Shown piece by piece: positions 621 to 3,600 of a DNA stretch of 64,000 nucleotides. The first letter of the stretch is position 1; the number at the start of each line of letters is the position of its first letter. The position numbers were made by a program. The stretch is from the NCBI RefSeq assembly GCF_024223415.1, contig NZ_CP100500.1; one strand, given 5' to 3'. Source of the DNA: Escherichia coli. GTDB lineage: Bacteria; Pseudomonadota; Gammaproteobacteria; Enterobacterales; Enterobacteriaceae.

Positions 621-3600
621 GCGGCTGGTAACAGTCCGTGGCACGGTAAACTCCACCCGGAGCAAGGCCAAATAGGGGTTCATAAGGTACGGCCCGTACT
701 GAACCCGGGTAGGCTGCTTGAGCCAGTGAGCGATTGCTGGCCTAGATGAATGACTGTCCACGACAGAACCCGGCTTATCGGTCAGTTTCACCTGATTTAC
801 GTAAAAACCCGCTTCGGCGGGTTTTTGCTTTTGGAGGGGCAGAAAGATGAATGACTGTCCACGACGCTATACCCAAAATAAAGCGGCTTATCGGTCAGTT
901 TCACCTGATGTACGTAATAAACCGTTCCGGCGGGTTTCAGATTGTTGAGTGCGCTTTATTCATGCCGGATGCGGCGTGAACGCCTTAGCCTGCCTACAAA
1001 AGCACGCAAATTCAATATATTGCAGAGATGGCGTAGGCCTGATAAGCGTAGCGCATCAGGCATTTTTGTGGTTGCCATCAGTTTCAAACCCGCGTCGATA
1101 AGTTTTTGCTTTTGGTGCACAGGGTAAGATGCATGAATATCTACGGTATTAATAATAGACTTTGTAAGAACTTATTAAGTCTATATTGCGTTTAAAAGGT
1201 CGTAATCATACGTATAGTCCTCTCTGGTAAAATATTGATTCTCTGAGTTATATGCTTCATATGTGTTATATTCCCCGACCTCAAAACCATTGTCCGGAGA
1301 ATTTTCGTTTTTCTCGAGGGTGTTATCTGAAAGTAACTCTTCTGAGCTAGAGTCTTCTATGTTTAAATCCATAGTATAATTAATTTGGGGAATGACCAGA
1401 TAAGCATTTTCTTTGATATTTTCATAATCTTCAATGATTATGTCGATATAATTATGTATTTTTTCTGATGAGAAATCTATCATCTCTGGTAATTTAATTC
1501 TGTTCAAGCAATTATTGATTTTCGATGAGCTTTTATATATTTCTTTTGTTAATTCATTTTCTAATTTATCTGTAAGAGTTGCTCTTGGTATAGATTTTAT
1601 AATTGCAAATCTCATAATTTTTAATTGTTCTTCGGTAATATCTCCAAGCTCATTTAAACAACTTTCGACAAACTTAATTTTTTCTTCAGAATACATATCG
1701 CTAATGCTTGTTAAAACAGGCGTTATTTTTAGTAAATAATCCCAGGAGATTGTGGCGTTTTGTGTTGAACTAACAAAATTAACCTGAAACATGTTGGCAT
1801 TAGTAAAATTTGTTGAATCCAATTTAAAAGGATTTAAAATGGTATTAGCCATATGTTTATCTGTAAAATCGTAATAATCTAAATCGACATTACGTAAGTC
1901 CAGAGAGGATAGATCAACGATATCTCCAGTCCCACAACTAAAGATTACGTTCAACCTCCTGATTTCATTGCAAATATGTTTCAATGGACAATTAATATTG
2001 ATATTGCCTGTGGATATTTTCTGGTTCTTTAATGGTTCATTAATGGTAAGTTCGCAGGTATTGTCCGATCGTTGAATAATTTGGGCGTTATAACCTAAAA
2101 AATCCAGACGAAGAGACGAGTCATTATAAAGAATTACATTTTGTAAGTACGCTAATTCTTTTTGAAAATCACCAGTGATAATGCATTTTCCACCTGGTTG
2201 TAACGCGTTAAGTAAAGTGACTATTTGAATAGAGGTCTGTTTTAGTTTTTCTATACCTGGTGCTAGAGCTTCGAGGTTATTTTCTATGGGGCTTTCAGGA
2301 AGATCATTCATTTTTCGACGGACTAAATCACTACTAATATCATTACCAATTGATGAAACAGGGAACATTATTTTATCCTTTATAAATAATCAATAAAAAT
2401 CATTATTAAAATGATCGGGTGAAAAAAGAGAATTTGCCAACAATCTGAAGTAATGCTGGTTTTATTAAAGTACGCAGGGGGTGTTAAGATGGCTTCTTTT
2501 CGGGTGAATTTTGCACAATACTTAGAAATCGTCTCCTTAATACATTCCAGCTCTTTTTTATTGACGGCTGAGCAAGTACATTGTTCGCCAAAAGGTGCAA
2601 AAGTGCCTACATCTAATGTTTGTATGATATAATCATCATGTTCTCCTGTAGAAATATCTATGATGAATGGACTCATATTTTCTGGTTGGATTCGGATCAT
2701 GACAGAAGGAACATCGCCTTGATAGAAGTTCAATGCAGTAATTGCAGATAATACTCTCCGCAGTTCATTACTTATACTGTATATTTTATTAACGTCATTG
2801 GTGGAGACAATTTCTGCAAACTTTCTTTTTACCGTCCAATAATCAATATTTCTATTGTGATTGTTAACCACTGCGTGCATTGGTGGGATTGAAGGGTGAA
2901 AAATATGTGCAATTGGGAAGCCTTTCATTGATGCCTGCCTTGTCGTCATGACAAACAATAATAGATGCTTATTTTCCTCGCAGGGTTCTTTCGCACTATC
3001 AAAAAACGCTCATTTACCCGGCGTTACAGTAAACGAAGCAACATTCTGTGGCCTACGCCGATCAAAAGCTTGGTGAAAATTTCCCTTGTTGTCTTTGTCT
3101 GACCTTATCGCGGCGACCAGCAATTATTCATTTTGTGATCCTCAACACAAAATGCTATTCGTCGCCTATGAGGGGAGAAGAATTTATGGAAAACGATTGC
3201 ATTCACAAAATGACGTCCTGTCAGAAGAGAAAAAGTTGACGTTAATCAATTGTTCGAGATGATCAATACCTGTATTCGAAATTTTAAAATATTGATAAAA
3301 TAAATGTTTGTTCTCCAACAAATAGCGTGAAAAAATGTGACGTGCCGCATTATTTATCGCTGAAAATGGTTTATTTATAATAAAATTTGAGAACTTGCTC
3401 ATTAAATTTAACTCAAATTTTGCCTGGTAATTATCCGGTAATTGCTTGAAATATGGTCTCAGCCCCTTTTTTGTATTAACCACATAACGAATGATGTTAT
3501 CGCCATAAAATATGGTTATCCCCGTCATTTTTTTTGACAAAAATCAGGGTTTATGCTGATTTTTATACTTTAACTTGTTGATATTTAAAGTTATTTAATT

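Follow-up and report, generated by a model that had tools for sequence, protein, structure and literature searches.

The DNA considered here belongs to the garK-rnpB-yhaC locus of Escherichia coli, and the window (the whole 64-kb stretch that was analysed) is 100% identical to E. coli EC1515 across that locus. Its central feature is rnpB, the gene for M1 RNA of RNase P, which is preceded by a promoter-like site and followed by a convergent neighbour, yhaC. Between the two genes lie the terminator T1, a decayed second copy of the rnpB 3' end, a pair of REP elements and a remnant of a further repeat unit (Table 1). Directly after the stub that closes this remnant the sequence turns AT-rich (GC 25-38% in yhaC and beyond).

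Table 1. Features of the rnpB-yhaC region, in window coordinates
Feature	Position	Strand	Evidence or remark
rnpB-promoter-like site, GTGACA, 17 nt, TATACT	381..409	+	10/12 consensus matches; just 5' of M1 start at 417
rnpB, RNase P RNA (M1 RNA), class A	417..793	+	Rfam RF00010, 318.6 bits, full length; RefSeq annotation of EC1515
Unit 1, whole	744..844	+	100% identical to K-12
Unit 1: last 50 nt of M1	744-793	+	
Unit 1: 3' trailer	794-802	+	
Unit 1: T1 hairpin, AAAAACCCGC-TTCG-GCGGGTTTTT	803-826	+	folding
Unit 1: T-tract and spacer	827-844	+	
Unit 2, decayed terminal unit	845..949	+	repeat alignment, folding, K-12 comparison
Unit 2: 5' block, identical to 744-764	845-865	+	
Unit 2: 12-nt insertion	866-877	+	
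Unit 2: pseudo-P4 strand, ATAAAGCGG against AGAACCCGG	878-886	+	
Unit 2: pseudo-P1 3' strand, identical to 772-790	885-903	+	
Unit 2: collapsed terminator	918-947	+	
Inverted REP element pair (BIME), between terminal unit and remnant	962..1062	.	direct reading, sub-threshold Rfam matches, dispersal
Remnant of a further unit	1076..1147	+	D2 83%, D3 71% identity; score 35 vs shuffle maximum 24
Remnant: decayed pseudo-P1 strand and terminator	1076-1115	+	25/30 identical to T1
Remnant: stub of next unit start, AGATGCATGAATATCTACGGT	1127-1147	+	cut off by AT-rich yhaC region
yhaC, convergent neighbour, AT-rich stretch	1181..2368	-	context, outside the repeat

The repeat is direct: the segment from 744 to 836, comprising the last 50 nt of M1, the trailer and T1, pairs with 845-949, and the second unit starts 18 nt past the end of the T1 hairpin (826), on the same strand as rnpB. 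A stretch of 21 nt, AGATGAATGACTGTCCACGAC, stands at 744 and again, unchanged, at 845, an offset of 101. There follows in copy 2 an insertion of 12 nt, evident on direct reading as GCTATACCCAAA, after which the offset becomes 113, the period of a 113-bp repeat unit, and the 83-nt block 754-836 matches 867-949 with an ungapped identity of 78%. Local alignment of the two copies gives 74 identical bases among 81 aligned, plus the 12 inserted bases, for a score of 107 (z ~42), whereas 2000 dinucleotide-preserving shuffles averaged 14.3 (sd 2.2) and never exceeded 29, so chance similarity can be rejected. A first-pass annotation of this DNA had described the second copy of the rnpB 3' end and terminator, its internal insertion and its decayed hairpin, all of which are borne out; the extent needs correction, however, as the repeat begins at 744 rather than 736 and ends at about 949. 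Tandem Repeats Finder reported no array in the window because there are fewer than two copies and these differ by an indel: near-identical full units are absent, and the repeat is reduced to unit 1, inside rnpB, plus a single decayed unit.

Intrinsic (Rho-independent) terminators combine a stable G+C-rich hairpin with a U-tract, and T1 has both whereas copy 2 has neither. The T1 hairpin folds at -19.4 kcal/mol (z -4.8), while its homologue in copy 2 reaches just -4.7 kcal/mol (z +1.05), a value equalled or bettered by 178 of 200 shuffles, and is followed by the tail TTTCAGATTG, in which the T-tract is gone. The hairpin of the downstream remnant is likewise unremarkable (-5.9 kcal/mol, z -0.07). 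T1 is also symmetric, since its reverse strand folds at -15.7 kcal/mol. A simple terminator scan overlooked T1, probably because the T-tract is taken up into an A/T extension of the stem, and folding served in its place. As T1 precedes only the decayed terminal unit, rnpB has no second functional terminator in this strain.

A promoter scan returned no promoter-like site in 826-1180, and no Rfam family reached threshold in 794-1200. Copy 2 gave a partial, sub-threshold RNase P match (15 bits), and two REP-derived families also matched below threshold, naRNA4 at 953-994 on the minus strand (25.3 bits) and ES036/CssrF at 998-1040 on the plus strand (32.7 bits). REP units are imperfect palindromes of ~35 nt that occur as inverted pairs, with many copies dispersed per genome. 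In the stretch between the terminal unit and the remnant, inverted REP-like units are evident on direct reading, and many dispersed copies exist: a query that included it matched 22 places in the median E. coli genome, as against 1 for a query without 744-1149. Beyond the REP pair lies a third, more decayed remnant of the repeat that was absent from the earlier annotation, and in single-copy strains T1 directly precedes a tail of this remnant type.

At the same place in K-12, Tandem Repeats Finder delimits 3.5 units of 113 bp with 96% identity. From 417 to 844, that is, through rnpB, the trailer, T1 and the spacer, the window equals K-12 at 428 of 428 bases, and 845-1180 matches the K-12 terminal unit, REP pair and remnant at 325 of 336 positions (96.7%) with no gaps. 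The two alleles proved to be collinear, and relative to K-12 the window is without exactly 226 bp, corresponding to two intact internal units. Copy 2 has 3 mismatches to the terminal unit of K-12 (unit 4) versus 19-21 to units 2 and 3. What had been proposed to be a duplication relic is indeed a duplicated rnpB 3' end with its terminator, but it is neither isolated nor private to this strain; it is the terminal unit of a K-12-type array.

Other E. coli strains vary in the same manner. Among 60 evenly spaced records drawn from 5,426 E. coli genomes, rnpB and yhaC stand at discrete distances of ~1203, ~1316, 1484-1491, 1605, 1710 and 1823, of which ~1203 corresponds to no extra unit, ~1316 to the addition of 113, 1484-1491 to the window type and 1710 to the K-12 type, the commonest in the sample. 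Direct reading of the unit structure in 11 E. coli strains gave between 0 and 4 downstream units, with a difference of exactly one unit (113 bp) between two O157:H7 strains. Such whole-unit differences in copy number among strains are those of a variable-number tandem repeat. The original description of the 113-bp tandem repeat after E. coli rnpB is reportedly that of Reed et al. in Cell in 1982, and the existence of the repeat is long established. The second copy is thus ordinary, being the last, decayed unit of an array already known. Text searches of the literature, later RNase P papers included, brought up only indirect mentions of it, such as the name rnpB T1.

The array is not confined to E. 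coli. Orthologous arrays follow rnpB in Salmonella and many other Enterobacteriaceae, and a scan of species genomes found them in 33 DNA stretches, nearly all from this family. In these 33 stretches and in Salmonella the insertion point is common and is occupied by related segments of 21-23 nt, identical between E. coli and Salmonella. The pseudo-P4 strand keeps a single C-to-G difference from rnpB in nearly all genera, though its flanks stay identical to the gene. Within any one species the units have the P1 strand, trailer and terminator proper to that species, whereas spacers and trailers vary from genus to genus. T1 is a strong hairpin in 33 of 33 arrays, as are 42 of 43 internal units but only 19 of 29 last units. 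In Salmonella, the MLVA marker STTR8 has been equated with LT2_3414008, a 116 bp x 7 repeat with alleles of 2-10 units (PMC3170611), and LT2_3414008 falls by position in the tdcA-rnpB intergenic region (PMC5337935). Literature searches found no single paper that links STTR8 to rnpB; from the coordinates in these two papers, rather than from primer sequences, we infer that STTR8 is the Salmonella rnpB array.

We put at roughly 85% the probability that the feature is a short allele of the known variable-number tandem repeat at the rnpB 3' end, an array undergoing concerted evolution whose second copy is inert in the window. The unit, 113 bp in K-12, joins the terminal ~50 nt of M1 to a 3' trailer, a T1 copy and a spacer, and its 12-nt insertion, together with two substitutions, disrupts the 3' strand of P4. 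The duplication bearing this insertion is probably old, since many genera of Enterobacteriaceae share the insertion point and have related inserts. Judging from the patterns of variation, units would be gained and lost by unequal homologous recombination among them or by replication slippage, and gene conversion would hold those blocks that they have in common with rnpB to the sequence of the selected gene, as concerted evolution. The short allele may have arisen by deletion from a longer array or may never have expanded; both histories are compatible with it. Against this reading stand the E. coli-Salmonella identity of the insertion-point segment and the retained pseudo-P4 difference, which exceed the conservation to be expected of a relic that drifts neutrally and are not explicable by conversion from rnpB.

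For rnpB itself the expected consequences are slight. Intact downstream units could serve as extra bidirectional intrinsic terminators behind this strongly transcribed stable-RNA gene, but in the window strain T1 alone would terminate transcription and set the 3' end of the precursor. Copy 2 appears to be an inert relic, judging from its lost hairpin and U-tract and its position behind an intact T1, though it may have some effect on rare read-through transcripts. The first-pass annotation had suggested that the duplication could affect 3' processing or termination of rnpB. That idea finds no support, as 417-844 is identical to K-12 with T1 intact, and copy 2 is downstream of T1 without a stable hairpin or U-tract.

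Several other accounts of the array deserve consideration. The first holds that positive selection acts on it as a set of stacked bidirectional terminators, which would insulate rnpB from yhaC and the tdc operon, in which case the window allele would be a weakened variant. T1 is symmetric and folds on both strands, and strong hairpins are kept in 42 of the 43 internal units. Moreover, several arrays mix different hairpin alleles, each fully complementary, and two hairpin types are common to E. coli and Salmonella, either of which can be rnpB's own T1 (strain 7_11_88A). That said, intact internal hairpins may be no more than the outcome of recent copying from a T1 under selection, copy number varies widely and extends to single-copy strains, and the terminator has been lost in about a third of terminal units, including that of the window (a strong hairpin persists in only 19 of the 29 last units). 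Selection for stacked terminators is compatible with the preferred explanation as far as the whole array is concerned, and inapplicable to the decayed copy in the window; as a separate account we regard it as possible, but on balance unlikely.

A broader proposal is that the disabled rnpB 3' copies constitute a selected module, kept in Enterobacteriaceae since before the genera split. It draws on the identity of the insertion segment between E. coli and Salmonella, on the persistence of the pseudo-P4 difference between flanks that still match rnpB and on the fact that internal hairpins are almost never lost. In one form, the module would be both a reservoir and a stack of interchangeable bidirectional terminators for a strongly transcribed ribozyme gene. 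Selection would then keep the insertion that destroys P4, so that read-through transcripts would be unable to build an alternative 3' half of the ribozyme. This proposal strikes us as distinctly doubtful.

Duplication of a stable-RNA 3' end is a hallmark of integrations, as at tRNA and tmRNA genes, and the array might accordingly be the scar of an integrative element with its attachment site in the rnpB 3' end. Many arrays do close with a half unit ending close to the 3' end of mature M1, and in the window the AT-rich stretch starts right after the stub. However, the copies run head-to-tail with a fixed period and nothing between them, the 64-kb window contains no further distal copy of the repeat, and the same architecture adjoins different downstream genes in different genera. 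Nor was matching sequence found in phages or true plasmids, the matches being mislabelled chromosomes or bare terminator stems. On these comparisons an integrative origin seems very unlikely.

Conservation of the unit also invites the idea of a selected structured RNA or decoy, a pseudo-3'-end that would pair with 5' strands of M1 or bind the C5 protein or RNase E. Over the first ~60 nt, mean identity is 89% across 59 distinct units from more than 12 genera, single-sequence folds recurrently give an outer stem (UGAAUGACUG with CGGUCA..UUCA) and a small inner hairpin, and here again the pseudo-P4 difference from rnpB is conserved. Yet covariation is absent (score 0.033 vs 0.036 in shuffles, with 480 of 500 shuffles at least as high), a recurrent G-to-A change breaks pair 22-41 without compensation, and RNAalifold recovered no such structure. 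Most of the conserved columns are those common to rnpB, as gene conversion from a gene under selection would explain. The units sit behind a terminator, no promoter-like site was seen in 826-1180, and unit number falls to zero in healthy strains. With neither compensatory changes nor an Rfam family at threshold, a structured non-coding RNA is not supported, and we consider it highly improbable.

Finally, each unit might be a small protein gene. Open reading frames occur in every E. coli unit and a few genome records annotate them as hypothetical proteins; in E. coli a Shine-Dalgarno-like GGAGGGG stands 7 nt upstream of the ATG in AGATGAATG, such a motif being present ahead of the K-12 units, and frame A, with 38 codons in K-12 and 33 in the window (847-948), ends in a stop that overlaps the start of the next unit (ATGA). 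In many other species, by contrast, frame A meets a stop after 9 codons or has lost its ATG, the downstream frame shifts because the insertion-point segment is 21, 22 or 23 nt depending on genus, and the Shine-Dalgarno-like motif is restricted to a few taxa (E. coli, E. whittamii and single units in Kosakonia and Klebsiella). All 3 of the 3 substitutions between K-12 units 2 and 3 alter an amino acid in frame A, and the openness of the frame is a property of the sequence, since a second frame is just as open, and so is the minus strand. The frames sit behind a strong terminator with no promoter-like site in 826-1180, and in a literature search E. coli small-protein papers made no mention of rnpB. 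With frame, start and ribosome-binding site not conserved among relatives, a protein gene is scarcely credible and was rejected; the unit is probably non-coding, its frames breaking between genera.

For the window, then, the short allele has little consequence: neither rnpB nor its terminator differs from K-12, and the additional copy is a repeat unit that has decayed. There are wider implications for those who work with the locus. Annotation pipelines should not call the 33-42-codon frames in the units, as some records do; assemblies and PCR or MLVA typing vary here by whole units (113 bp in E. coli); and anyone cloning rnpB T1 with its flanks should expect the sequence beyond T1 to differ between strains. 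Comparative work may be worthwhile on the wider pattern, in which an old array found across the family undergoes concerted evolution with an essential ribozyme gene and carries two terminator alleles of long standing.

Several known systems bear comparison. Like attL/attR duplications of tRNA or tmRNA 3' ends, the rnpB array provides a partial second copy of a stable-RNA gene 3' end, but its copies follow one another in tandem at a regular period, uninterrupted by any element, and searches of phages and plasmids yielded no matching attP. Like rrnB T1-T2, it places more than one Rho-independent terminator after a strongly transcribed stable-RNA gene, although the extra terminators are duplicates that drag a disabled gene 3' end along with them and the window's extra copy is no longer a terminator. 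Closer still is STTR8 of Salmonella enterica, on its coordinates an orthologous array between rnpB and tdcA whose copy number varies by strain, whose units start at the same rnpB position and for the most part carry the same insertion-point segment, GACGCTATACCCAAAAGAAAGC. It differs in that its units measure 108 or 116 bp and alternate between two hairpin types, and in that every unit of the example array, the last included, keeps a terminator hairpin. The 113-bp repeat of K-12 is the same locus, with the same unit content and collinear with the window, the window strain being without two intact internal units (226 bp). The first terminator of the K-12 array is itself a widely used part, in circulation under the name rnpB T1 (PMC3643576).

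The window is E. coli DNA (positions 380-1400 are 100% identical to strain EC1515) and contains rnpB, the gene for the RNase P RNA, M1, which is closed by its own first terminator, T1. The T1 hairpin folds at -19.4 kcal/mol (z -4.8), and its opposite strand is nearly as stable (-15.7 kcal/mol), so that by predicted folding T1 can terminate transcription in either direction. Though T1 is a textbook terminator, a simple terminator scan did not report it, probably because the stem takes in the flanking A and T runs, leaving no T-tract to score; negative results from that scan are weak evidence.

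Features of the window around rnpB, stretches compared for hairpin type, and classes of rnpB-yhaC anchor span in E. coli
Feature	Position or span	Strand	Remarks
garK	window start		
Promoter-like site	381-409		5' of rnpB
rnpB	417-793		Rfam RNaseP_bact_a, 318.6 bits, full length
T1 hairpin	803-826		perfect stem AAAAACCCGC-TTCG-GCGGGTTTTT, directly past mature M1 3' end
Copy 2	845-949		decayed second copy of rnpB 3' end and terminator
Inverted REP pair (BIME)	about 962-1062		between copy 2 and the remnant
Older terminator remnant	1086-1115		83% identical to T1
Degenerate start of another unit	1127-1147		
AT-rich stretch	about 1150-3900		GC 25-38%, yhaC and yhaB inside, begins directly past the repeat stub
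yhaC	1181-2368	minus	AT-rich, convergent to rnpB
tRNA gene	56133-56205	minus	anticodon CAU, Rfam tRNA 73.1 bits, no relation to the rnpB repeat
Hairpin-type comparison	L011:628-735, L007:729-848, L009:729-867, L045:1268-1832		compared with window 794-836; L-numbers label compared loci, L045 being the Salmonella array
Anchor span	about 1203 bp		without downstream unit
Anchor span	about 1316 bp		one intact unit, without REP pair
Anchor span	1484-1491 bp		window type
Anchor span	1605 bp		one more unit
Anchor span	1710 bp		K-12 type, most frequent in the sample
Anchor span	1823 bp		K-12 plus one unit

The repeat of the rnpB 3' end and terminator described in the first-pass annotation, with its insertion and decayed hairpin, is real. 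A 21-mer, AGATGAATGACTGTCCACGAC, is present at 744 and 845 and a 19-mer, GGCTTATCGGTCAGTTTCA, at 772 and 885; no further copy of either was found in the 64 kb with up to 3 mismatches allowed. Gapped local alignment of the two copies gave 74/81 identical bases plus a 12-nt insertion and a score of 107, above chance as set by 2000 dinucleotide-preserving shuffles (14.3 +/- 2.2, maximum 29). The insertion, GCTATACCCAAA (866-877), sits exactly at the position of the 3' strand of rnpB helix P4 and is followed by ATAAAGCGG where rnpB has AGAACCCGG, changes with which copy 2, judged by its bases, could not provide a functional P4 strand. Its counterpart of T1 reaches only -4.7 kcal/mol, no more stable than shuffled sequence, and the T-tract has become TTTCAGATTG. 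At this same place, after CCAC and before the 3' strand of P4, the Rfam RF00010 consensus has 12 positions missing from E. coli rnpB, probably a coincidence.

The nature of this arrangement is clarified by K-12 MG1655, which carries 3.5 x 113 bp at 96% identity (Tandem Repeats Finder) at the equivalent position. From 417 to 844, through rnpB, its trailer, T1 and the spacer, the window does not differ from K-12 at any base, and 845-1180 matches the last K-12 unit, REP pair, remnant and yhaC end at 325/336 positions without gaps. Copy 2 differs by 3 mismatches from the fourth K-12 unit, as against 19-21 from the second and third. This exact collinearity, together with the likeness of copy 2 to unit 4, indicates that the window allele is the K-12 allele without two intact internal units, exactly 226 bp. 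By the same comparison copy 2 is the terminal unit of the array, and its decay is older than the divergence of these strains. The earlier reading of a duplication relic was therefore right in kind but incomplete, since copy 2 is the last unit of a known array in a short allele; nothing was found to support the idea that it could alter how the 3' end of rnpB is processed or terminated.

Unit number varies widely within the species. With rnpB and yhaC as anchors, an evenly spaced sample was read from 5,425 matching E. coli genomes; the spans fall into discrete values (see table), and the unit structures behind these classes were confirmed in 11 directly read loci. Between two O157:H7 strains the difference is a single 113-bp unit exactly, and O157:H7 strains are without the REP-pair insert and have an intact last terminator. 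In about 1,430 genomes yhaC could not be matched together with rnpB. Two of these were read, CFT073 and SCU-112; in both, yhaC and yhaB are missing, the tail stub comes immediately after T1, and only short pseudogene fragments lie between rnpB and tdcR, with the 3' end of the yhaC region still recognisable.

Beyond copy 2 lies a third, older terminator remnant that the first reading overlooked and that no longer folds (-5.9 kcal/mol, z -0.07). The median number of matching places in an E. coli genome was 22 for queries that took in the intervening REP stretch, and 1 when 744-1149 was left out. In Rfam, window 953-1072 gave sub-threshold matches only, to two families derived from REP elements: naRNA4 at 25.3 bits (gathering cutoff 59.5) and ES036/CssrF at 32.7 bits (gathering cutoff 37.6).

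Some E. coli units carry a second hairpin allele, 7 nt longer, AAAACCCGCCAGCGTAAAC[C/T]GGCGGGTTTTT, folding at -17.9 to -23 kcal/mol. In strain 7_11_88A this longer allele is the terminator of rnpB itself, which argues for sequence exchange between the gene terminator and downstream units. Two hairpin types, one short with a TTCG loop and the other 7-8 nt longer, are common to the E. coli and Salmonella arrays. Either type can be T1, which looks like a polymorphism of long standing or like exchange between T1 and downstream units.

Arrays of disabled rnpB 3' ends and terminators are not peculiar to E. coli. One genome per species was scanned for GGCTTATCGGTCAG occurring twice at a spacing of 99-127 bp, yielding 33 stretches, nearly all from Enterobacteriaceae, among them Citrobacter, Enterobacter, Kosakonia, Cedecea, Lelliottia, Buttiauxella, Phytobacter and Klebsiella pneumoniae, along with Atlantibacter, Yokenella, Superficieibacter, Huaxiibacter and other Escherichia species. 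The period ranges over 105-128 bp and the number of units over 2-7. Two of the 33 are enterobacterial-type arrays in records named for unrelated phyla, L036 (CACSKA010000008.1, 'Chryseobacterium sp. 18061') and L043 (Microvirga antarctica, a 289-bp contig, coverage 0.59), most likely contamination or mislabelling of public assemblies. Absence from the scan list means little, as Salmonella enterica is missing although the Salmonella array that was read fits the pattern, owing either to a differing representative genome or to a non-exhaustive scan. That array comes from serovar Senftenberg, on a piece of chromosome whose record wrongly calls it a plasmid; its seven units, each 108 or 116 bp long, lie between garK-rnpB and tdcA. 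No paper describing the family-wide pattern was found in the literature searched.

In all genera the downstream units start at the identical point in rnpB, and in every one the P4 strand is replaced by a related 21-23-nt segment (e.g. GACGCTATACCCAAAAGAAAGC, TCCGCTTTCTATGAAAGAACGC, GACGCTCTTCATGAAAAGAAAGC), so the insertion-bearing duplication appears older than these genera. P1 strand, trailer, terminator and spacer are common to the units within a species, while trailers and spacers barely align between genera, a combination that reads as the signature of concerted evolution. In a simple model, an old disabled 3'-end copy would sit behind T1, and whole units of terminator, spacer and disabled 5' half would be gained or lost when this copy and the 3' end of the gene cross over unequally. 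Such a model fits the many arrays that finish in a half unit ending near the M1 3' end, without terminator. Of the original terminal half unit, E. coli proper seems to retain only the stub at 1127-1147, trimmed at the start of the yhaC region.

Could the units be useful? For the arrays in general it is plausible that intact ones are useful as extra terminators: T1 is strong in 33/33 species and hairpins are strong in 42/43 internal units, including arrays with several different, fully complementary alleles. That said, recent copying from a selected T1 would give much the same picture, only 19/29 terminal units are strong, and strains without an extra unit are common. The idea is inapplicable to the window copy because its hairpin and U-tract are both lost. 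That the disabled copies are a selected module and not a drifting relic seems unlikely, though E. coli and Salmonella share an identical segment at the insertion point, and in nearly all genera the pseudo-P4 strand (the downstream counterpart of the P4 3' strand) keeps its C-to-G change relative to rnpB. Conversion from rnpB cannot explain either, which is mild evidence for constraint on the disabled copy.

A structured RNA is not supported: single-sequence folds gave an outer stem and small inner hairpin, but RNAalifold did not recover them, covariation was absent among 59 distinct units (0.033, against 0.036 in shuffles), and a recurrent G-to-A change disrupts a proposed pair without compensation. 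A coding role was rejected, the frame failing across genera. E. coli units have GGAGGGG 7 nt upstream of an ATG and an open frame whose stop overlaps the next start (38 codons in K-12; 33 in the window, 847-948). In many species the frame ends after nine codons, the ATG is sometimes missing, the Shine-Dalgarno-like motif is missing in most genera, and segment lengths of 21, 22 or 23 nt shift the downstream frame. Repeat-unit peptides carry only sporadic 'hypothetical protein' calls. Two long proteins from assembled read sets, P0010 (734 aa) and P0023 (318 aa), clustered at 90% identity with 38-42-residue repeat ORFs, which could be an assembly or clustering artefact. An attachment-site scar, finally, finds no matching sequence in any phage or genuine plasmid, no distal copy inside the window and nothing between the copies.

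The K-12 113-bp array was reportedly described together with the first sequence of rnpB (Reed et al., Cell 1982). The name in current use, 'rnpB T1' (PMC3643576), implies the first of several terminators. In Salmonella, the MLVA marker STTR8 (LT2_3414008) is listed with seven units of 116 bp, alleles ranging from 2 to 10 units and a diversity index of 0.83 (PMC3170611), and the Salmonella rnpB-tdcA array is evidently this marker, the two being linked through coordinates rather than primers. E. coli has been known to carry this repeat for four decades, and the feature in the window is a short allele of it; in Salmonella the repeat evidently serves as a typing marker.
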